DNA of 64,000 bases from a phage: the sequence record OZ336095.1. One strand, written 5' to 3'. Shown in pieces: positions 1,619 through 43,336 of this stretch. The position numbers and the translations under genes are program-made. The notes below the pieces were generated by a model. It was not told where the DNA came from. It ran no database searches and was given only the letters and a program-made list of their open reading frames with translations. Each line of letters opens with the position of its first letter. Within the stretch, counting starts at the first letter, position 1.

Positions 1619-3085
1619 ATGGCAGATATTACAGAAACACAAGAAAGCTTACCACCATTTAGAATGGGTGAAGTAGGTTCTTTGGGTCTGAAGGTTAAGA
1701 ATGGAAGAATCTATGAAGAACCTCGTCAGGCACTAAGGTTCCCTGAAAGTATTAAAACTTTCCAATTAATGATGCGTGACCCTGCTGTAGCAGCATCTGT
1801 AAATATTATTAAGATGTTTGTCAGAAAAGTCAACTGGAGATTCGTACCTCCAAAGGGAAAAGAGCAAGACCCTAAAATGCTTGAAAGAGCAGACTTCTTT
1901 AATTCTTTAATGGATGACATGGAGCATGATTGGGCAGATTTTATTAATTCTGTAATGTCATTCTGCACTTATGGGTTCTGTGTTAACGAGAAAGTTTATA
2001 AGAAGCGACAGGGTAAAAAAGGAAAGTACCAGTCAAAATTTGATGATGGTCTAATTGGATGGGCTAAATTACCAATCAGAAACCAATCAACACTTGATAA
2101 GTGGTATTTTGACGAAGACTTTAGAAAAGTTACTGGTGTTAGACAGAATCTGAGAAATGTTTCACATATTGCTGGAGCAATTAATCTCGGAGAAAGGCCA
2201 CTAACAAGAAAACTTCCACGAGCTAAATTCATGCTGTTTAAGTATGATGATGAATATGGAAACCCAGAAGGTCGTTCACCATTACTTAATGCCTATGTAC
2301 CGTGGAAGTATAAAGTTCAGATTGAAGAGTACGAAGCCGTTGGTGTTTCAAGAGACTTGGTAGGTATGCCAAAGATTGGTTTACCACCAGATTATCTGGA
2401 TGAAAATGCAGAACCTGAAAAGAAAGCTTTCGTACAATACTGCAAAACTGTTGTTAACGATATGATTGCTAATGATAGAGCAGGTTTAATCTGGCCTAGA
2501 TATATCGACCCAGATACTAAAGAGGATATTTTCGAGTTCTCATTAGTTTCTAGACAGGGTGCTAAAGCATACGATACAGGTTCTATTATTGACAGATATT
2601 CCAAGCAGATTATGATGGCATTTATGTCAGATGTTCTTGCTATGGGTCAGTCAAAATATGGTTCATTCTCTCTTGCAGATTCTAAGACAAGCTTACTAGC
2701 AATGTCGGTAGATATCCTGCTGAAGCAAATTAAGAACGTAATTAACCGTGATTTAGTTGCACAGACTTATGCTCTTAATATGTGGGACGATGAAGAACAT
2801 GTACAAATCACATATGATGATATCGAAACTCCAGACCTTGAAGCAATTGGTTCTTATATCCAGAAGACTGTTGCAGTAGGTGCTTTGGAAGTTGACAAAG
2901 AGCTATCTAACAAGCTTAGAGAGCATATTGGTCTTCCTCCTGCTGATGAGTCTCAACCAGTATCTGAAAAGCTTTCTCCAAATAGCCAAAGCCGCTCAGG
3001 AGATGGTTATAAGACCGCTGGAGAAGGTACTGCAAAGACACCTTCAGCGAAAGACCCAAGCACAGCAAATAAGGCAAATAAATAA
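1619..3085 (+). CDS. portal protein (putative)
   Basis: 489 aa from ATG 1619 (track start 1610 is GTG; ATG 1619 is preceded by GGTGAG); position between terminase and protease/scaffold; synteny call, no motif recognised. Confidence 0.55.
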   Translation: MADITETQESLPPFRMGEVGSLGLKVKNGRIYEEPRQALRFPESIKTFQLMMRDPAVAASVNIIKMFVRKVNWRFVPPKGKEQDPKMLERADFFNSLMDDMEHDWADFINSVMSFCTYGFCVNEKVYKKRQGKKGKYQSKFDDGLIGWAKLPIRNQSTLDKWYFDEDFRKVTGVRQNLRNVSHIAGAINLGERPLTRKLPRAKFMLFKYDDEYGNPEGRSPLLNAYVPWKYKVQIEEYEAVGVSRDLVGMPKIGLPPDYLDENAEPEKKAFVQYCKTVVNDMIANDRAGLIWPRYIDPDTKEDIFEFSLVSRQGAKAYDTGSIIDRYSKQIMMAFMSDVLAMGQSKYGSFSLADSKTSLLAMSVDILLKQIKNVINRDLVAQTYALNMWDDEEHVQITYDDIETPDLEAIGSYIQKTVAVGALEVDKELSNKLREHIGLPPADESQPVSEKLSPNSQSRSGDGYKTAGEGTAKTPSAKDPSTANKANK

Positions 3086-3585
3086 TGGCTGAAGTTATCT
3101 CTATTTCAAATGCTACACGAGTGCATTCGTATAGAGGTGTTCTTATTATCACTGACAAATTATCTGTAGAGGCTGGCTCAAGGGTCAGCCTTTCAGGTTA
3201 TGTAAGTGATGGTGGAACCTCTGACGTTTTCACTATTTGCAGGTTACTTGATGCACCAATGAGTGGAAAACCGTTTATTTTAGGAAATTGTAGTGAAATT
3301 GTTAAAATTCCATTTGACAGTTCATGCCTTTTGGGTGTAAAGTTATATAACTGCGAGAATAAACGTATCAATGTTAATAGCATTGAAGCCGCTTTCATTA
3401 CCCTCGACACTGCATTTCAATCTCCAATGACAGTTAATAAAGAAACAAACAGACTTGAATACATTTTTTCACAAAATGATTACAAAGTACTTGTCAAAGG
3501 CAAAGTATATGATATGATTGTAAATGTGGTAGATGAATCTGGTAACCATTCAACAGTCCTTAAACAAAAAGTAAGGTTTAATTAA
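3085..3585 (+). CDS. hypothetical head-module protein
   Basis: 166-aa ORF, ATG overlaps portal stop (TAATG coupling); no recognisable motif. Confidence 0.4.
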   Translation: MAEVISISNATRVHSYRGVLIITDKLSVEAGSRVSLSGYVSDGGTSDVFTICRLLDAPMSGKPFILGNCSEIVKIPFDSSCLLGVKLYNCENKRINVNSIEAAFITLDTAFQSPMTVNKETNRLEYIFSQNDYKVLVKGKVYDMIVNVVDESGNHSTVLKQKVRFN

Positions 3586-11260: not shown

Positions 11261-19276
<8,016 letters not shown>

Positions 19277-19278
19277 TA

Positions 19279-20451
19279 ATGGCAGTAGGTGAAATTCAAA
19301 TTAGTGCCTTGCCTCAAGCAGCTTTACCAATTGACCTTAGTGATATCTTCCATCTTAAGCAGGGTATTGAGGATAAGAGGTGTACTCTTGAGCAATTACT
19401 TGCTCCACACGCAAGCCTAAGAAATAACCCTCATGGTGTTACTAAAACACAAATTGGTTTAGATAATGTTATTAATGCTCTTCAGTTAGTCGCTGCAAAT
19501 AACTTATCAGATATTGTTAATGTAGCTGAGGCAAGAGCAAATCTACAGATTATGTCTTCAGAAGAGGTTAATAACCTTGTCCAGCAACATATCAAGGACA
19601 AGAGTAACCCACACAATACAACTAAGGCACAGGTTGGTTTAAGTAATGTTCAGAACTGGACAACATCTAATCTGTATAACGAAGATGCAGATAAGTATGC
19701 TACAGCAAGAGCAGTAAATAACTTGTACAAGGCTGTTCAGGCTTCTTATCCAGTAGGTACTATCCATCTTTCTATGAACTCTGCAAACCCTTCTACATAC
19801 TTAATTTGTGGAGGTACTTGGGAGTTAGTTTCAAAAGGCAGGGCATTGGTTGGCTATGACTCTGATACAAGACCAGCAGGTTCTGTATTTGGCGCTTCAA
19901 CTGTCACTTTGTCAGTTAATAACATGCCTCAACACTCCCACTCTGTGTCTCTTAGCGGTGGTGGTCACACTCATAATGCAACTGTGTCAATCTCAGCTTT
20001 TGATTATGGGGCTAAGACTACAAACTCTTTTGACTATGGGACAAAAGCTACTAACACAACTGGTAACCATACACACAGTGTGTCAGGTAACACAAGCACC
20101 AATGGTACTCACAACCATGATGTGTATCCTAGAGAAAATGATGGTACTGGTAATGCTGTAGCTGACTCTAATGGTGGTGGTGCAAGAAGGACATCAAGGA
20201 CTTCTAGTGACGGTGCGCACTCACACAGCTTTAACGTCACATCTGGTGCATCAGGTGACCACAGCCACACGGTTGGTATTGGTGCTCACAGCCATACAGT
20301 TGGTATTGGTTCACACACGCACAGTGGCACTGTAACAGTTTCTTCTTCTGAACATACACATAGTGGTAATACAAATAGTGTTGGTGGAGGTCAGGCGGTT
20401 AATATTGAGCAGCCATCCTTCGTACTGTATGTATGGCAGAGAACAGCTTAA
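19279..20451 (+). CDS. tail fibre protein with His-x-His repeat C-terminal domain
   Basis: 390 aa; N-terminal repeated 'NPH..TK.Q.GL.NV' motifs; C-terminal 'HSHSVS', 'GNHTHSVSG', 'DHSHTVGIGAHSHTVGIGSHTHSG' repeats typical of fibre tips. Confidence 0.65.
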   Translation: MAVGEIQISALPQAALPIDLSDIFHLKQGIEDKRCTLEQLLAPHASLRNNPHGVTKTQIGLDNVINALQLVAANNLSDIVNVAEARANLQIMSSEEVNNLVQQHIKDKSNPHNTTKAQVGLSNVQNWTTSNLYNEDADKYATARAVNNLYKAVQASYPVGTIHLSMNSANPSTYLICGGTWELVSKGRALVGYDSDTRPAGSVFGASTVTLSVNNMPQHSHSVSLSGGGHTHNATVSISAFDYGAKTTNSFDYGTKATNTTGNHTHSVSGNTSTNGTHNHDVYPRENDGTGNAVADSNGGGARRTSRTSSDGAHSHSFNVTSGASGDHSHTVGIGAHSHTVGIGSHTHSGTVTVSSSEHTHSGNTNSVGGGQAVNIEQPSFVLYVWQRTA

Positions 20452-20461
20452 TTTCTTTACA

Positions 20462-20481
20462 GGGGCTATAAAGCCCCTTTT
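20462..20481 (+). terminator. hairpin terminator between the two fibre genes
   Basis: GGGGCT ataa AGCCCC followed by TTTT. Confidence 0.5.
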
Positions 20482-20497
20482 AAGAGGAAAATATATA

Positions 20498-22852
20498 ATG
20501 GCAGATTACAAGTTGAGTGAATTAAACTCAATCGATACAATCCGTTCAGATGACCTTCTTCATGTCAGGGTTAAAAAGAGACCTGAAATGTTGGGTGATG
20601 AAGACCGTCGAATGACCTATCAAGATTTCTTAGCATCTTTTAAACTTGAAAGATTTGTTCAGATTGCTGGTAGCACTATGACGGGTGACTTAGGAATTGT
20701 TAAGCTACTTTACGGTGGCAAGGCTGTATTCGACCCTACAGGCTCTTCTGAGATTACTGTTGGGGATGTTTTAAAGACTTTTAAAATCAACGCAAACGGC
20801 CTTAAACTAACTATTGCAGACGCTTCAAGGTCGGCAACTGTTTATCATACTTTGAATAAGCCAAGCCCTAATGAACTTGGGATGAGAACTAATGAAGAGA
20901 ATGACGCAAGGTATGCAAGACTAGCCGTGAATAATACCTTTAGAGGTACTCAAGCTATCCTCTCTGACAATGAAGCGCTCATTATTAAAAATATCACTCA
21001 AGGTGCTCCACTCTATCTTCGTGGTCAAGATGCAGATGGTACTAACAGATGGTATCTAGGTAATGATAATAGGGGTACAAATAATCTTGTATTGAAGAAT
21101 GTAAAGTCTGACGTTTCAATTGCTATTTTAGAGAATTTGGTGACAGTCAACAGAACTCTTCAAATTGCTGGCCAAGTTCAGCCTTCAAGTTTTGCTAACT
21201 TAGATGCTAGGTATTTTACCCAGACAGCAGCTAATCAGAGATTTGCGCAGTTAGCTGGTAATAACACTTTTACTGGTACTAACACTTTCTCTAATTTTGT
21301 TGCTAAGAAGAATGCTGAAGCCATCACTCTGCAAAATGTGGACACTGCTCCCTCTTTATATATCCGAGCAAGAAAGTCAGATGGGAATTATAAGTGGTAC
21401 ATTGGTAATGACGGTGATGAGAACATTTTAAAAATCTATAACTATCTAACAAAAACACAAGTCTCACTAGGTAACACTATTGCCATGAGCAAAACAGTTC
21501 AAATTGATGGTCAAGTACAACCTTCTGATTGGACTAACATTGATTCTAGATATATTCCGGCAGCCACTTTGAGTAATCTCCCTAAACTTAATGTGTCTAA
21601 TACTTTCACAAATGTGCAAACTATTGTATCTAACAACGAGGGTTTGGTATTAAGGAACTTGACACAGGGGCAGCCACTATATATCCGTGGTGTTGATACT
21701 GAGAATGTTTCTAGATGGTGGTTAGGTGTAGGTGGTCCAAACTCTAATGTGGTAACACTTAACAACAACTATTCTGACACTAAAATCTCACTTGGTGGCT
21801 CATCAGTAATGACTAATAAGAGCTTAGCTATTACTGGTCAAGTACAACCTTCTGACTTCTCTAACTTAGATGCTAGATACTATACCCAAGCTGCCGCAAA
21901 CGCAAGATATATGCTTGCAAGCATCACTGGTTCGGCTTCTGAAGCAGATGGTGGTGATGGTGTTGCATGGGATGCAAAAACAGGTCTTTATAAGGTTACT
22001 AACACCACTGGACAGTCTTCTTCACTTGTATATCACATGTTTTTAGGGACTAGTTCTACACCATCTGCACAATTAAAGTTTTCGTTTAAAAATGGTGGGA
22101 TGTGGTATAGAACATCAAGAGATGCCTATGGCTTCGAAGTTAATTGGTCTAAAGTTTACACGGAAGCACAAAAACCAACCCCTTCAGAGATTGGTGCATA
22201 CACTAAAGCTGAAACTGACCAGAAAATTGCAACAGCAATTAGTGACTCTACAGACCTTAACAAAATCTATCCAGTTGGTATTGTAACGTGGTTTAACAGT
22301 AATGTTAACCCTAATACAGCACTCCCTGGTCTAACTTGGACGTACCTGAATAATGGTGTTGGTAGAACTATCAGAATCGCAGCAGCAAACGGTTCAGATG
22401 TTGCTACAACTGGTGGTTCAGATTCTGTGACATTAGCTGTTGGTAACTTACCATCACACACTCACAGTTTCTCTGCTACCACTTCATCTTTTGATTATGG
22501 TACGAAGAACACTAACAGTACTGGTGCACATACCCATTCAGTTAGTGGTACTGCTGCATCTGCTGGGCAACACGCACACAGAATTTCACAGGGTGACAAC
22601 GCTAACGTTTCATCAGGTAGAGTCGCATCTTCAAACTCTGCTCAGACCCATGTTGGTTGGACTGAAAATGATGGTGTTCACACCCACTCAGTTAGTGGTA
22701 CTGCTGCATCTGCTGGTGGACATGCTCACACGGTTGGTATTGGTGCTCACAGCCACACAGTTAGTGGTAACACTGGTGGTACAGGTTCTGGTTCAGCATT
22801 TAGTGTTACTAACCAGTTCTACAAGTTAATGGCTTGGGTAAGAACTGCTTAA
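20498..22852 (+). CDS. long tail fibre protein with three internal ~100-aa repeats and His-x-His C-terminal domain
   Basis: ATG 20498 with RBS AAGAGGA (track ORF extends upstream through the terminator); three repeats each ending '..GQVQPS.F.NLDARY.TQ.AAN'; C-terminal 'PSHTHSFS', 'GAHTHSVSG', 'GGHAHTVGIGAHSHTVSG'. Confidence 0.65.
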   Translation: MADYKLSELNSIDTIRSDDLLHVRVKKRPEMLGDEDRRMTYQDFLASFKLERFVQIAGSTMTGDLGIVKLLYGGKAVFDPTGSSEITVGDVLKTFKINANGLKLTIADASRSATVYHTLNKPSPNELGMRTNEENDARYARLAVNNTFRGTQAILSDNEALIIKNITQGAPLYLRGQDADGTNRWYLGNDNRGTNNLVLKNVKSDVSIAILENLVTVNRTLQIAGQVQPSSFANLDARYFTQTAANQRFAQLAGNNTFTGTNTFSNFVAKKNAEAITLQNVDTAPSLYIRARKSDGNYKWYIGNDGDENILKIYNYLTKTQVSLGNTIAMSKTVQIDGQVQPSDWTNIDSRYIPAATLSNLPKLNVSNTFTNVQTIVSNNEGLVLRNLTQGQPLYIRGVDTENVSRWWLGVGGPNSNVVTLNNNYSDTKISLGGSSVMTNKSLAITGQVQPSDFSNLDARYYTQAAANARYMLASITGSASEADGGDGVAWDAKTGLYKVTNTTGQSSSLVYHMFLGTSSTPSAQLKFSFKNGGMWYRTSRDAYGFEVNWSKVYTEAQKPTPSEIGAYTKAETDQKIATAISDSTDLNKIYPVGIVTWFNSNVNPNTALPGLTWTYLNNGVGRTIRIAAANGSDVATTGGSDSVTLAVGNLPSHTHSFSATTSSFDYGTKNTNSTGAHTHSVSGTAASAGQHAHRISQGDNANVSSGRVASSNSAQTHVGWTENDGVHTHSVSGTAASAGGHAHTVGIGAHSHTVSGNTGGTGSGSAFSVTNQFYKLMAWVRTA

Positions 22853-26128: not shown

Positions 26129-26428
26129 TTAATCTGCCAACCTTAAATTAAAATTAACACCAAATTTTTCACATACTTCCAACATATACTCAAGGGAGAC
26201 ATTACCAGTGAGATGAATTATGTTGGACACACGAGCCTGAGAGATACCACAAATTTTAGCAACTTGCTCTTGAGAAAGACCTCTGGATTTAATCTCTCTC
26301 TTAAAACGATGTGCAACGAAATCTCTCATTTCGTATACATCCATTGGACAAATATAACTCTCCATTTCAGCCTCTCTATCAGCCTCCCAATCATCTTGTG
26401 GGGCATAAGGGTCAAAAACCTCATTCAT
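26129..26428 (-). CDS. XRE-type helix-turn-helix DNA-binding protein (putative regulator)
   Basis: C-terminal 'LSQEQVAKICGISQARVSNI' HTH; start taken at ATG 26428 (overlaps upstream stop). Confidence 0.5.
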   Translation of the reverse strand: MNEVFDPYAPQDDWEADREAEMESYICPMDVYEMRDFVAHRFKREIKSRGLSQEQVAKICGISQARVSNIIHLTGNVSLEYMLEVCEKFGVNFNLRLAD

Positions 26429-26633
26429 CTTTCTTCTTCCGTTTGCGTGAAGTATCAATCAACGAATCTATGTTTGTAGCTCTAACCTTTTCACGTTCAT
26501 CGTTAAGATAATCATCAAGAGCCTTTTCAATCTGTGAATCATCTTGACAGATGACTGTAAAGACTGTAAAGCCGTCTGTATCATCAATTATCTTACCATA
26601 ACCGCTTCTGGGATGTAACTTTTTAAGAGCCAT
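26421..26633 (-). CDS. hypothetical small protein
   Basis: 70-aa ORF with basic C-terminal tail. Confidence 0.35.
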   Translation of the reverse strand: MALKKLHPRSGYGKIIDDTDGFTVFTVICQDDSQIEKALDDYLNDEREKVRATNIDSLIDTSRKRKKKDE

Positions 26634-26634
26634 A

Positions 26635-27018
26635 TCAAATACCTGTGCAGCTTCTGTTTTCTAAGAAATACTCAACACCATACATAGCTTTTTGCATCAA
26701 ATCTTCTTTAAACTGGATACGGTGGTTGAGCATCGCCTGTACATCAATATCATCATGGTGTTTCTCTTTAATGTTTGCAGATTGCAGGAAATACTCTGCA
26801 AGAACACGATATTGATAGTCAGTTACCTTATCAGTCATCTCTGTCAAAGACTCTTCAGAGATTGGTTTAAGTAACTCACCATTAGCTAGAGCAATACCTT
26901 TTACAATCTGGCAAGTGTCTTCTGGAACACCTGATAAGTCCACATTTGGAAGTTCTGTTGCATTGACTGGTAAATTCATTGCCATAACCATTGCAGCAGC
27001 TAATAAAATCTTTTTCAT
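26635..27018 (-). CDS. secreted/periplasmic protein with N-terminal signal peptide
   Basis: 'MKKILLAAAMVMAMNLPVNA' signal-peptide-like N-terminus; RBS TGAGGT. Confidence 0.5.
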   Translation of the reverse strand: MKKILLAAAMVMAMNLPVNATELPNVDLSGVPEDTCQIVKGIALANGELLKPISEESLTEMTDKVTDYQYRVLAEYFLQSANIKEKHHDDIDVQAMLNHRIQFKEDLMQKAMYGVEYFLENRSCTGI

Positions 27019-27140
27019 AATGACCTCAAAGTTATATTAAATTTTGTATTACGTTGAGTATAAAAATAAGCTATAACACCTGACTTGTCAACAGATTTTA
27101 TAGCTTATTTGGCAGATTTTTTATAAGGCTACTGCCATCC

Positions 27141-27210
27141 TTCCATACCATACCACACCAAACCACACCATACCGAACCACACCCTACCAAACCCGACCA
27201 AACCCGACCG
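27141..27210. repeat. C-rich decamer-phased tandem repeat tract (region A, left)
   Basis: seven consecutive 10-nt units ending CCA/CCG (ttccatacca taccacacca aaccacacca ...); + strand nearly G-free. Confidence 0.6.
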
Positions 27211-27212
27211 AG

Positions 27213-27286
27213 CATCACTTAAAAATCCTCTTAGAAGACTCTTAAGTGATGTAATCGAATTTTTATGTAGCTCCGATTAACTACCC
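27213..27286. repeat. conserved dual-hairpin module, copy 1
   Basis: perfect 10-bp inverted repeat CATCACTTAA-N19-TTAAGTGATG followed by TAATCGAA...TCCGATTA hairpin and ACTACCC; near-identical block recurs at 28604-28699. Confidence 0.6.
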
Positions 27287-27350
27287 GCACTTTACCAAAC
27301 CTCACCCTACCCTACCAGACCTTACCTAACCGCGCCGTACCTCATTAAAA
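27287..27350. repeat. C-rich decamer-phased tract (region A, right)
   Basis: 10-nt units with recurring TACC/CACC; same strand asymmetry. Confidence 0.5.
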
Positions 27351-27370
27351 GACCCTCTTAAAGACCTTTT

Positions 27371-27396
27371 AAAAAGGAGCCTCCGAAGAGGCTACC
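27371..27396 (-). terminator. intrinsic terminator for - strand gene 27405-27845
   Basis: on - strand GGTAGCCTC ttcg GAGGCTCC followed by TTTTT. Confidence 0.6.
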
Positions 27397-27404
27397 TAGT
27401 CAAC

Positions 27405-27845
27405 TTAGAAAGGTTTTCTACGTTGCTTGTTAATGTTAGCTTTCATAGCAGCTAAATGGTTTTGCTGTTCAATCAGTCGTGAGCGTTCTTGATGGCTAAG
27501 TGCCATAGTGTTCACATTCTCAATCGCTTGAGTGGCTTGCTTTAAAGCACGACCAATCTTACCAGACATTTTACGTTTTGCAATAGTTGCTTGATGTTTA
27601 GGTTCAACCACACGATAGCCAACACCCATTGAAGCAACCAGATAAATCTTCTCTTCTTTAAGAAGCTTTTCAATAAACTTCTCAAGTCGGTTTAGTCGTG
27701 TAAGTGCATAAGCCTTCATTTCATCTTCGTACTTAACAATGTCACCTTGATAAGTTGGCTTCACAATACCTAAGAAGGTGTCCATCTCAGAATGTGATAC
27801 AGTGTCACCGTAACTGAACTTTGCTGCTAATGCTTTTGTATTCAT
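27405..27845 (-). CDS. hypothetical protein (cassette gene 2)
   Basis: 146-aa ORF with basic C-terminal third; own terminator downstream. Confidence 0.4.
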   Translation of the reverse strand: MNTKALAAKFSYGDTVSHSEMDTFLGIVKPTYQGDIVKYEDEMKAYALTRLNRLEKFIEKLLKEEKIYLVASMGVGYRVVEPKHQATIAKRKMSGKIGRALKQATQAIENVNTMALSHQERSRLIEQQNHLAAMKANINKQRRKPF

Positions 27846-27847
27846 AA

Positions 27848-28453
<606 letters not shown>

Positions 28454-28530
28454 TTAGTTTATTGTTAAGTTGTTTGTAAAGAACCCTCAACAGAAGACTC
28501 TTTAGAAACTTGGTAGATTTTTAACGTGGC

Positions 28531-28600
28531 TACTACCATCCACCCACACTTTACCATACCTCACCGCGCCTTACCCGACCGGGCTGCACCTTGCCTTGCC
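28531..28600. repeat. C-rich decamer-phased tract (region B, left)
   Basis: 10-nt units each ending in CC (tactaccatc cacccacact ttaccatacc ...). Confidence 0.5.
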
Positions 28601-28603
28601 AAA

Positions 28604-28699
28604 CATCACTTAAAAACCCTATGAGATAACCTATCGAGTATAATTTAAAGGCTCTTAAGTGATGCAATCGAATTTTAATGTAGCTCCGATTAACTACCC
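28604..28699. repeat. conserved dual-hairpin module, copy 2 (enlarged loop)
   Basis: same CATCACTTAA / TTAAGTGATG arms but 41-nt loop containing TATAAT, then CAATCGAATTTTAATGTAGCTCCGATTAACTACCC matching copy 1. Confidence 0.6.
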
Positions 28700-28777
28700 A
28701 TACCCTACTTTGCCTTGCCGTACTGTACTTTACCCGACCATACCGGACAATACTTAACCCGACCTCGCCCTACCGGA
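28700..28777. repeat. C-rich decamer-phased tract (region B, right)
   Basis: TACC recurs at the start of most 10-nt units (taccctactt ... tacccgacca taccggacaa ...). Confidence 0.5.
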
Positions 28778-28817
28778 CATCACTTAAAAACCCTCTTAGA
28801 AAGACTCTTAAGTGATG
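28778..28817. repeat. third copy of the CATCACTTAA-N20-TTAAGTGATG palindrome
   Basis: sequence almost identical to 27213-27251 (loop CCTCTTAGAAAGACTC). Confidence 0.6.
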
Positions 28818-28847
28818 CTGGTGAGTACCCGTTGGTTTATGCTGCTC

Positions 28848-28875
28848 AGTATACTCACCAAATTTTCTATGTCAA
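28848..28875 (-). promoter_or_regulatory. sigma70-like promoter on - strand (TTGACA-N16-TATACT)
   Basis: hexamers read on reverse complement; AT-rich upstream; -10 lies inside inverted repeat GGTGAGTA...TACTCACC (28820-28858). Confidence 0.45.
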
Positions 28876-29032
28876 CAACTTTTTATAAAAAAGTTCTGAT
28901 AGCTATATGTGTCACGAAACAAAAGATTGTAAACAAGACACCCATTGCAAAAGATGTGTCCAAAAGCTTACTTGCAACGTATGACAATACAAAGACAACC
29001 AGTATAAACAGAATGACTGTACTGAACATAGT

Positions 29033-30133
29033 TTATTCATAATCCCTAATAACTATCCCTACAGGAAACTGTAAAGAACCCTTACGAGTCATCTTCTGGA
29101 ACTGAACAGTTAAAGGTTTCCCGATAAACTCTTCAGGATGTTCAGCAAGATACTGTTTCTTCTCATGAGTAGTCTTCCATGAGACATCTACAAAGACATT
29201 AGGAAGAGTCTCTACAACGAACTTGCCATGACCACGTTTATCGGTCTTTACACCAGTCACTTTAAACTCTTCAGTGTGCATCTTCTTGTGCTTAATCAAG
29301 AAGTATGAACGGTGACCACACTCGTAGAAAGATTCTTCAGAGATTGAGCGGTACATTGCACCTTCAAACTTAGCTTCAACCCACTTATCATGAGCTTCAT
29401 CAAACTCTTCCCAAGAATTTACACGGATAGTCTGCACAGGAACAACTCTACAGGTATCCCCAAGCTCAACAATGGGTGAGTTATCAATAACTTCACGACG
29501 CTCAGGCCAAGATTTTGAATTGTCACAGATATCATACCAGTAGAATTTAAGAAGGTGACGGTCTGGATTGTCAGCATTCTTAATCATAGATACAATATCT
29601 TCTAAGTCCCAACCATGAGCATAAATCTCTCCATCAAAGTCTTCAACTTGCGGGTGTAATTTAAGCAACAAAAGCAAATCTGGGATTAGTTCTGCTGGAA
29701 CGTTGTAAACAGTATTCTCACGAGAATAAGCCGTGAAACTAACTGAATCATCATCTCTTGAAATTCTACAACGTACACCATCCAGTTTTGGTTGAGCATC
29801 AGCAGGGAACTTCAGATACTTTGCGTGACTAACCTTTGCAGCATCATGAGCAAGCTGTACGCCTACCTTCTCAGTATTCTGTGCAGACTCTTTTGTGTAA
29901 GCATAACCTTTACGGTCAACTTGCTTTTTATACTTAGCAGCAACTTCAAAGAGAGCTTGCTGTTCAGCATTACGCTCATTCTTTTTACCGATGTTCTTAG
30001 GCTCTGCTGTGTACTCTTCAAACATCATCTTGCCATTTTCTTTACCATAGGTTGTGATAACTTTGTCACCTACAGCAACACATGACCAGACGTTGAAGGA
30101 ACCATCTTTATTTTGTTTGTACAGAATTGTCAT
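29033..30133 (-). CDS. ATP-dependent DNA ligase
   Basis: adenylation motif 'KLDGVRC' (KxDGxR); ~366 aa from ATG 30133 with GAGG RBS. Confidence 0.7.
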   Translation of the reverse strand: MTILYKQNKDGSFNVWSCVAVGDKVITTYGKENGKMMFEEYTAEPKNIGKKNERNAEQQALFEVAAKYKKQVDRKGYAYTKESAQNTEKVGVQLAHDAAKVSHAKYLKFPADAQPKLDGVRCRISRDDDSVSFTAYSRENTVYNVPAELIPDLLLLLKLHPQVEDFDGEIYAHGWDLEDIVSMIKNADNPDRHLLKFYWYDICDNSKSWPERREVIDNSPIVELGDTCRVVPVQTIRVNSWEEFDEAHDKWVEAKFEGAMYRSISEESFYECGHRSYFLIKHKKMHTEEFKVTGVKTDKRGHGKFVVETLPNVFVDVSWKTTHEKKQYLAEHPEEFIGKPLTVQFQKMTRKGSLQFPVGIVIRDYE

Positions 30134-30326
30134 TTTTAACCTCTGAGTGATACCAAGTGTTGCAAGCATTACATGCGTAAAGCTCTAAGTCGTTTTTATC
30201 TGGTTTATGGAAACAGTTTGACCCACAACGACACCGGAATAACTTACCATCAACACGAAGAATGAATGTTTCAAGCTCACCATCTTCTGTAAGAACTGCG
30301 TTCTTAAATTTATTATCTTTACCCAT
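30108..30326 (-). CDS. small zinc-finger protein
   Basis: 72 aa with 'CRCGSNC' and 'CNACN' cysteine clusters; RBS GAGAG. Confidence 0.35.
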   Translation of the reverse strand: MGKDNKFKNAVLTEDGELETFILRVDGKLFRCRCGSNCFHKPDKNDLELYACNACNTWYHSEVKNDNSVQTK

Positions 30327-43307: not shown

Positions 43308-43312
43308 ACTAG

Positions 43313-43336
43313 GGAGCCTCTTCGGAGGCTCTTTTC
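43313..43336 (+). terminator. intrinsic terminator (UUCG tetraloop type)
   Basis: GGAGCCTC ttcg GAGGCTC followed by TTTTC. Confidence 0.6.

Follow-up and report, generated by a model that had tools for sequence, protein, structure and literature searches.

An intergenic region of a Felix O1-like coliphage as the probable upstream guide array of a type II VIPR system

The intergenic region 28436-28882 of a phage genome (sequence record OZ336095.1; the whole stretch analysed, 64,000 nucleotides, is called the window, and coordinates refer to it unless another locus is named) raises the question of why a host-type promoter should be followed by some 400 nt, G-rich and evenly phased repeats among them, before a start codon is reached. 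On the - strand the region has a DNA ligase gene (29033-30169) and a 48-codon open reading frame (ORF) upstream of it and a 195-codon gene (27848-28435) downstream. A first-pass annotation, made from the letters alone, had read the region as a structured leader and proposed attenuation, RNase processing or an embedded small RNA as its role. We conclude, with high confidence, that the region constitutes the upstream array of guide RNAs in a VIPR (Viral Interference Programmable Repeat) system of type II, SUSP1 clade, and that it is very probably transcribed in the direction of the gene. The locus belongs to this already characterised clade and is thus of a known kind; our analysis adds the decoded targets of its four guides, strand-specific hairpins between the guides and orphan guide modules in relatives that lack the vipr gene. 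The best match for 801 bases around the region is Escherichia phage allfine (98.4%), and almost all of the 242 phage records matched are Felix O1-like myoviruses (Ounavirinae), which identifies the window as DNA of a Felix O1-like coliphage (Felixounavirus).

VIPR was described in two bioRxiv preprints of 2026, one reporting its discovery (10.64898/2026.04.26.720920) and the other its analysis by cryo-electron microscopy (cryo-EM; 10.64898/2026.04.26.720927). According to these preprints, the system consists of a minimal RAMP-fold protein, Vipr, with an RRM core, a G-loop and a thumb, usually accompanied by one accessory gene, vap, and of guide RNAs (vrRNAs) of about 100 nt in which 9-16 YNNGG repeats are followed by a conserved 3' tail, a pseudoknot in the SUSP1 clade. 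One Vipr protomer occupies each repeat, sequestering GGY and presenting NN, and the NN dinucleotides pair with DNA of the form NNx NNx, skipping one nucleotide, to give an R-loop triplex that silences transcription. Guides of the SUSP1 clade, of which the discovery set includes 41 vrRNAs (10.64898/2026.04.26.720920), are described there as mostly aimed at a satellite phage in E. coli genomes that has tape-measure and baseplate genes related to those of the phage. The experiments reported for SUSP1 comprise small-RNA sequencing, Vipr pull-down, GFP repression, lambda assays and cryo-EM (10.64898/2026.04.26.720920, 10.64898/2026.04.26.720927), the vrRNAs being detected as small RNAs of about 100 nt that co-purify with Vipr (10.64898/2026.04.26.720920).

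The vipr gene and its guide tracts

The 195-codon gene, which lies on the same strand as the repeats, matched a single PDB sequence in a phmmer search, chain 36pp_D ('SUSP1 Vipr protein'), over its full length (E = 6e-128; 191/195 residues identical). No Pfam family was found for the protein. The contact residues given in the cryo-EM preprint (10.64898/2026.04.26.720927), H17, K33, R39, E71, M72, K82, G87, K88, R138, C173, D177, W178 and R179, are all present, as is the G-loop sequence; the preprint also names T175, where the protein described here has V, like the SUSP1 chain in the PDB. The gene that follows is identical at 145/146 residues to SUSP2 gp039, the gene after vipr in SUSP2 (the comparison is with SUSP2, not with SUSP1 vap1); its product has no Pfam family and corresponds to phrog_5926, to which PHROG assigns no function. 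The genes and the guide tracts of the locus are as follows.

27848..28435, - strand: vipr, 195 aa, RAMP-like guide-binding filament protein (phmmer against PDB)
27405..27845, - strand: vap1-type accessory gene, 146 aa, starting 3 nt past the end of vipr and placed as vap in the published locus
28698..28777, - strand: guide tract of vrRNA-B1, 16 YNNGG units, five of them with A or T for the first G
28544..28603, - strand: guide tract of vrRNA-B2, 12 YNNGG units (tract parse)
27285..27344, - strand: guide tract of vrRNA-A1, 12 units, the first of which may be part of the flanking hairpin
27143..27212, - strand: guide tract of vrRNA-A2, 14 units, all strict GGT

The tracts have an exact 5-nt period, reading GGTNN on the - strand. 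When the whole 64 kb was searched for five consecutive GGTNN units with at most two mismatches, 31 matches were obtained against 0.05 expected, and all 31 lie on the - strand within four tracts, two in 28436-28882 and two at 27137-27341. The latter pair represents two further vrRNAs downstream of vipr and vap (27107-27344, in the intergenic region 27019-27404). With tract limits set by independent landmarks, namely where the preceding hairpin stops and where the tail begins, the four tracts hold 54 units, in which Y1 and G5 are each present in 54/54 and G4 in 46/54, five of the exceptions at G4 falling in B1. Tract plus tail gives predicted mature vrRNAs of 113 (B1), 95 (B2), 93 (A1) and 106 nt (A2), sizes that fit the published value of about 100 nt. 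All 16 NN types are represented in a set of 31 distinct tracts taken from 13 phages, and the NN positions have an entropy of 1.87-1.89 bits where the GGY positions have 0-0.78, a contrast that is partly built in, as the parser constrains positions 1, 4 and 5; the NN positions vary freely between close relatives. The G-rich tracts are protein-binding repeats with a target code, not structure.

Each tract is followed by a 3' tail, and hairpins precede both guides of the upstream array and the ribosome-binding site of vipr.

28665..28697, - strand: 3' tail pseudoknot of vrRNA-B1, GUAG..AAUCG..CUAC..CGAUU type (covariation alignment)
28509..28543, - strand: 3' tail pseudoknot of vrRNA-B2, GUGG..GGUAG..CCAC..CUACC type, both stems covarying against the other tail types
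27252..27284, - strand: 3' tail pseudoknot of vrRNA-A1 (covariation alignment)
27107..27142, - strand: 3' tail pseudoknot of vrRNA-A2, AAGG..GGCAG..CCUU..CUGCC type (covariation alignment)
28778..28817, - strand: hairpin 1, upstream of the first guide, CAUCACUUAAGAG...UUUUUAAGUGAUG; sense -16.5 kcal/mol (z = -5.3), antisense -9.0
28604..28664, - strand: hairpin 2, between B1 and B2, 61 nt, the hairpin 1 stem with a longer loop; sense -21.7 kcal/mol (z = -6.1), antisense -12.6
28478..28503, - strand: hairpin AAAGAGUCUUCUGUUGAGGGUUCUUU, directly upstream of the vipr ribosome-binding site; sense -8.2, antisense -1.2 kcal/mol; kept in 11 loci

The 13 distinct tails fall into four sequence types that have two interleaved helices in common; in their alignment 99.1% of cells are paired and both sides have changed in 8/9 pairs, whereas slid controls give 30-44%. 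The tail pseudoknot thus covaries, which indicates a folded RNA. The palindrome copies and the two phased G-rich tracts that the first-pass annotation had placed before the gene are borne out: the palindrome CATCACTTAA/TTAAGTGATG is present twice, at 28778-28817 and 28604-28664, and the tracts run with a period of 5 nt for 16 and 12 units. Both the hairpins that precede the guides and the one ahead of the vipr ribosome-binding site rely on G-U pairs; they are far more stable as sense RNA. Hairpin 1 is conserved in relatives; a covariation test of the guide-flanking hairpins found their variants too conserved to be informative.

These properties bear on a reading in which the repeats act as DNA, either as replication-origin iterons (a transcription-primed origin with an R-loop of G-rich RNA) or as a centromere-like array. 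The region does have replication genes (ligase, polymerase) as neighbours, a strong promoter points into DNA with a G-rich non-template strand, the GenBank record of KhF3 annotates a 'possible binding site of StbAB', and GenBank labels parts of such loci as 'repeat region' (DR_4 in wV8). However, only 3/5 positions of the repeat are conserved, unlike in iterons, all tracts lie on one strand, the flanking hairpins are strand-specific, require G-U pairs and gain 7-9 kcal/mol in stability as sense RNA, and the covarying tail points to folded RNA. Moreover, homologous RNAs have been sequenced and seen bound by Vipr in cryo-EM, according to the preprints (10.64898/2026.04.26.720920, 10.64898/2026.04.26.720927), and the mapped genome ends of UAB_Phi87, a Felix O1-like relative, lie elsewhere. 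We consider a DNA-level element extremely improbable. No supporting feature was found for the StbAB annotation of KhF3; a genome terminus or packaging site was rejected because the 608-bp terminal repeats of UAB_Phi87 map near another gene block; and a Chi-like recombination hotspot is not indicated, a single GCTGGTGG occurring in the 64 kb, outside the region and at chance level.

Satellite targets of the four guides

If the tracts are guides, their NN dinucleotides should spell out gapped matches in the DNA of a satellite. The gene 13488-14285 (+ strand) of the window, beside the tape-measure gene, has DNA homologues annotated as 'phage baseplate protein' at 70-93% identity in 474/5426 complete E. 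coli genomes, or about 9%, the match covering 13509-14052; this baseplate gene marks the satellite family of the predicted targets. Nine satellite loci (L133-L141) were scanned on both strands with guides converted to nNNnNN... following the preprint's methods, that is, with a skip of 1 nt. Each locus is an element of about 10 kb, inserted in a gene of an E. coli chromosome, with genes for a large serine recombinase, a tape-measure protein and a baseplate protein, several small ORFs and often a Dam-type methylase. The insertion sites differ, being at mdtG, at a DUF72 gene near yecD, next to wrbA and next to tonB. The best matches are listed below, with the number of shuffled guides that reach them.

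B1: L138 6372-6419, within a 185-aa gene; 28/32 NN positions; 0/400 shuffled guides
B2: L140 6156-6191, within a helix-turn-helix (HTH) gene; 20/24 NN positions; 1/400 shuffled guides
A1: L136 8614-8649 and L137 8470-8505, 48-83 bp upstream of a 236-aa gene; 21/24 NN positions; 0/400 shuffled guides
A2: L134 13179-13220, also L137 and L141, in the large serine recombinase gene; 23/28 NN positions; 0/400 shuffled guides

The matched fractions are thus 0.88 (B1), 0.83 (B2), 0.88 (A1) and 0.82 (A2). With skips of 0, 2 or 3 nt the nine satellite loci gave matches at background level only, and within the phage's own 64 kb, guides masked, the top match is at most 0.71. Judged from the coordinates, the skipped base is the third codon (wobble) position in all three intragenic targets, those of B1, B2 and A2, and a skip base on the wobble position of coding targets is also reported in the VIPR preprint. 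When the guides of the 13 phages are taken together, 18/31 distinct guides reach at least 0.80 within the nine loci. The four guides are therefore directed at a satellite of about 10 kb in E. coli whose tape-measure and baseplate genes are related to the phage's own, and the published targeting rule is independently reproduced, on guides possibly outside the original study. Most likely the system serves the phage in attacking a satellite that would act as its parasite.

Two of the satellites have a YNNGG tract of their own, with 14-15 units (L136 4139-4208 and L138 4693-4767, both on the - strand), and no vipr is annotated in either. In the tail of the satellite tract, GTGGATTGTCGTAGCCACGTTAAAAATCGAC, the second helix covaries again. 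The VIPR preprint remarks that some satellites carry vrRNAs, with which these two tracts agree.

Promoter, transcript and proposed mechanism

The upstream array is preceded by a promoter and a possible operator, and the downstream array lies between a terminator and a second promoter.

28848..28875, - strand: sigma-70-type promoter TTGACA-N16-TATACT, consensus score 11/12, putative promoter of the upstream vrRNA array and vipr-vap
28819..28860, no strand assigned: inverted repeat TGGTGAGTA-N24-TACTCACCA, from the -10 hexamer to about +22, with 9-nt arms that are 100% complementary; possible operator
27370..27393, - strand: intrinsic terminator after vap, AGCCUCUUCGGAGGCU followed by a U run (terminator scan)
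27063..27091, - strand: second promoter, TTGACA-N17-TATTTT (consensus scan), kept in relatives, serving the next gene (26635-27018) and marking the end of the VIPR locus

The first-pass annotation had described a near-consensus promoter with an A/T-rich upstream element, a -10 hexamer inside an inverted repeat and a distance of about 400 nt to the ATG, and each of these features is present. The TTGACA-N16-TATACT site is the top scorer among 24 promoter-like sites in 24-35 kb, a total that is not above chance (27 expected from shuffles), and A/T-rich DNA lies directly upstream of its -35 hexamer; a putative start near 28841 is 406 nt from the ATG at 28435. The first arm of the inverted repeat, TGGTGAGTA (28860..28852), contains the -10 hexamer and is separated by 24 nt from the second arm, TACTCACCA (28827..28819). 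Promoter hexamers and inverted repeat are invariant in 12 relatives from three genera (Felixounavirus, Mooglevirus and Suspvirus), in which no more than two bases are changed over the stretch from -35 to about +45, whereas the DNA 5' of the -35 diverges. This conservation argues for function, though for no particular type of control, and since the repeat is invariant in all relatives covariation is uninformative. As its 3' arm alone would be transcribed from the predicted start, we infer that the repeat has a role at the DNA level, and it may occlude or regulate the promoter, as the first-pass annotation suggested. The site is most likely the vrRNA/vipr promoter. A literature search for a Felixounavirus transcriptome found none. 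A Cro/CI-type HTH protein whose gene lies some 2.4 kb further downstream (26129-26458, also - strand; HTH_3, E = 6e-10) is one candidate for binding the inverted repeat at the -10 hexamer; it and the ligase are the only neighbouring genes for which Pfam was informative.

The position of the promoter invites a second reading, in which the 406 nt are a cis-acting regulatory leader of gene 27848-28435, controlled by attenuation, a riboswitch-like fold or titration of an RNA-binding protein in the manner of TRAP. The promoter lies 406 nt ahead of the ATG, a hairpin stands just before the ribosome-binding site, and the spacing of the trinucleotides, one every 5 nt, resembles that of TRAP binding sites. 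The RNA also folds better than shuffled sequences (z = -3.46): three long hairpins account for its stability, with the G-rich tracts left mostly open. Other observations speak against the attenuating leader that the first-pass annotation proposed. The same modules of hairpin, tract and tail recur past the operon terminator, between 27378-27393 and the promoter at 27091..27063, and thus outside the 5' untranslated region of any gene; they persist in phages that lack the gene; and their NN content is hypervariable between close relatives, which is unfit for a cis-regulatory fold. A relaxed Rfam search of 26800-29200 returned nothing with an E-value below 2, its two hits being chance snoRNA matches (E = 2.4 and 4). 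In addition, the NN code finds specific targets elsewhere, and the product of the downstream gene is itself the protein that binds such repeats. We judge a cis leader very improbable. A TRAP- or CsrA-like protein sponge, arrays of two-tetrad G-quadruplexes, an R-loop replication origin and primase hot spots had also been candidates, suggested by the 5-nt GGT periodicity, and were dropped when Vipr was recognised as the product of the adjacent gene and targets emerged for the NN code. The remaining suggestion of the first-pass annotation, RNase processing or an embedded small RNA, was essentially correct: the tracts are two vrRNAs, whose SUSP1 homologues are small RNAs of about 100 nt.

On the reading of the region as a guide array, transcription would begin near 28841 from the host-type promoter at 28875..28848, and the transcript would comprise, in order, a 64-nt 5' piece including hairpin 1, B1, hairpin 2, B2, the third hairpin and vipr-vap. 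The hairpins before and between the guides may serve as punctuation, the primary transcript being cut or ended there to release mature vrRNAs of about 95-113 nt. A1 and A2 would be made by read-through of the terminator or from a start of their own (none identified). By analogy with the 98%-identical SUSP1 protein, for which both steps have been shown, the Vipr filament would grow from the 3' pseudoknot cap with one protomer per YNNGG unit, and the Vipr-vrRNA complex would pair its NN dinucleotides with double-stranded DNA of the form NNxNNx... in an R-loop triplex that blocks transcription. On the same grounds the vrRNAs here are presumably expressed as RNAs of about 100 nt bound by Vipr, and the complex is expected to repress the DNA it targets. 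We further raise, as a rather unlikely possibility, a layer of vrRNA biogenesis and control that would be undescribed, in which a dimeric repressor of the phage or host gates the promoter and the hairpins preceding the guides are sites of host RNase cleavage or termination that free the guides; a related idea is that orphan guides in phages lacking vipr might still act, either with Vipr borrowed from a co-infecting phage or by soaking up that protein.

Several points weigh against the guide-array reading. The target matches, at 82-88%, are imperfect and come from nine of the 474 satellite loci; B2 is the weakest guide, equalled by 1/400 shuffles; the VIPR papers on which the interpretation draws are preprints; and the transcription start, the mature RNA ends and the read-through of the terminator at 27378-27393 (needed for A1 and A2 unless they have a promoter of their own) are all inferred. 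B1 carries A or T for the first G in 5/16 units and may be weakened, since perturbation of GGY is reported in the VIPR preprint to abolish silencing. The last point is also the first in favour of a decaying or partly inactive VIPR locus, in which the upstream array, notably B1, would be a relic and the promoter would mainly serve vipr-vap, or genes further downstream in relatives without vipr. Those relatives keep the promoter and one or two orphan tracts without a target above background, and vipr is annotated in two fragments in phage DR094. Yet B1, degenerate units included, matches its target better than the other guides do (28/32), the intact Vipr shares 98% identity with the active SUSP1 protein, and all four guides have targets at 0.82 or above, so that we regard decay as unlikely and retain the upstream guide array as the explanation of the region.

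Relatives, gene neighbourhood and known systems

In the relatives ASO1A and UAB_Phi87 the 195-codon and 146-codon genes are absent, and the promoter is kept with one or two tract modules. These orphan guides (ASO1A, L005 2566-2700; UAB_Phi87, L006 2566-2830) occupy the equivalent of window 27019-28882, with an identical promoter/inverted-repeat block, and from the sequence it looks as though vipr and vap were deleted by recombination between the flanking arrays. When the nine satellites were scanned with the NN codes of the orphan guides, the scores (0.70 and 0.75) did not rise above background. In Salmonella phage vB_Si_DR094 (L128 2645-3232) the vipr homologue is annotated as two coding sequences (2645-2983 and 3047-3232) instead of one 588-nt gene, which suggests that vipr is disrupted there, although the phage retains four guide tracts.

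An exact scan of IMG/VR for seven consecutive GGTNN units followed by GGT gave at least 120 stretches, of which 120 were kept as loci. The matches listed include plain microsatellites and also many contigs with degenerate GGTNN tracts of diverse NN content, often arrayed. In two of these contigs (L115 and L012) the array starts directly past the end of a gene for a protein with the C-terminus GIGDFRPSHGRY, which is similar to that of Vipr here; the protein is a distant Vipr homologue, 32% identical over the thumb and G-loop, and in L115 it is encoded directly upstream of a six-tract GGTNN array, an independent association of gene and repeats. The tracts of both contigs are separated by a fixed 14-mer, GGTAAGGCTAATGG. 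Very large degenerate GGTNN arrays occur in the metagenomic viral contigs L116, L115 (6113-6496), L012, L019, L065 and L107; the 14.6-kb contig L116 has 25 tracts, one of 46 units, which exceeds the 9-16 units of the preprint. These large arrays probably belong to other VIPR types.

Some further observations concern the window and the matched records. The terminator hairpin after vap (27373-27400) has a 93%-complementary inverted copy 16 kb off, at 43308-43335; one terminator module apparently serves both genome strands. The tail-fibre genes at 20253-22757 (+ strand) contain internal direct repeats of 44-71 nt with His-rich units of the GGTGCTCACAGCCACAC type, and the Felix O1 genome paper describes like repeats for gp76 and gp77. 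Two records named after unrelated hosts, GU169904.1 (Staphylococcus phage SA1) and MG065668.1 (Campylobacter phage A126), are 93-98% identical to the Felix O1-like region and are probably mislabelled or contaminated assemblies.

With this analysis, what appears in Felix O1-like genomes as two 'hypothetical proteins' and two 'repeat regions' becomes one defined system whose four guides are decoded; GenBank records still carry the labels 'hypothetical protein' and 'DR_4' for parts of the locus. Work on the conflict between phage and satellite also gains concrete predicted target sites.

Two known arrangements resemble the region in outline. TRAP sites in Bacillus trp leaders consist of 5' untranslated RNA with about 11 trinucleotide repeats, one every 5 nt, each bound by one subunit. 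TRAP is a ring that acts in cis on GAG/UAG repeats with uninformative spacers, whereas here the repeats are GGY and the spacers encode a target in trans; no TRAP homologue is present here. Iteron and centromere arrays (ParR/parC, StbA/stbDR) likewise consist of clustered short direct repeats in intergenic DNA beside replication genes; in contrast to them, the repeats described here are degenerate at 2/5 positions, strand-specific and flanked by covarying RNA-type structures, with no adjacent partition or initiator gene.

The closest system is the type II VIPR of SUSP1 (PDB 36pp), with which the locus shares a Vipr that is 98% identical, a vap gene after vipr, vrRNAs on both sides of the genes, YNNGG tracts of 12-16 units, a pseudoknot as 3' tail and targets with a 1-nt skip in the same kind of satellite. 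It differs in having two guides upstream and two downstream, where one and three are reported for SUSP1, in its NN content and thus its target sites, in the AGY/UGY found in 5/16 units of B1, and in belonging to a Felixounavirus, not a Suspvirus. The native promoter, the -10 inverted repeat and the inter-guide hairpins are features of this locus that the available text of the preprints does not discuss for SUSP1.

Class 1 CRISPR-Cas, and Cas7 (RAMP) in particular, offers the wider comparison: a small RAMP-fold protein polymerises along the guide and flips bases out at a fixed period, and, as in arrays of CRISPR crRNAs, a variable guide part is joined to a conserved structured handle, with several guides behind one promoter that need to be separated. 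Unlike Class 1 CRISPR-Cas, VIPR has no Cas1/Cas2, spacer acquisition or PAM, its conserved repeat lies inside the guide (3/5 nt), it reads 2/3 of the target nucleotides, type II silences without a nuclease, and it is carried by a lytic phage. VIPR is thus a phage-borne form of RNA-guided DNA silencing with a gapped 2-of-3 code, and it has been proposed to pre-date CRISPR.

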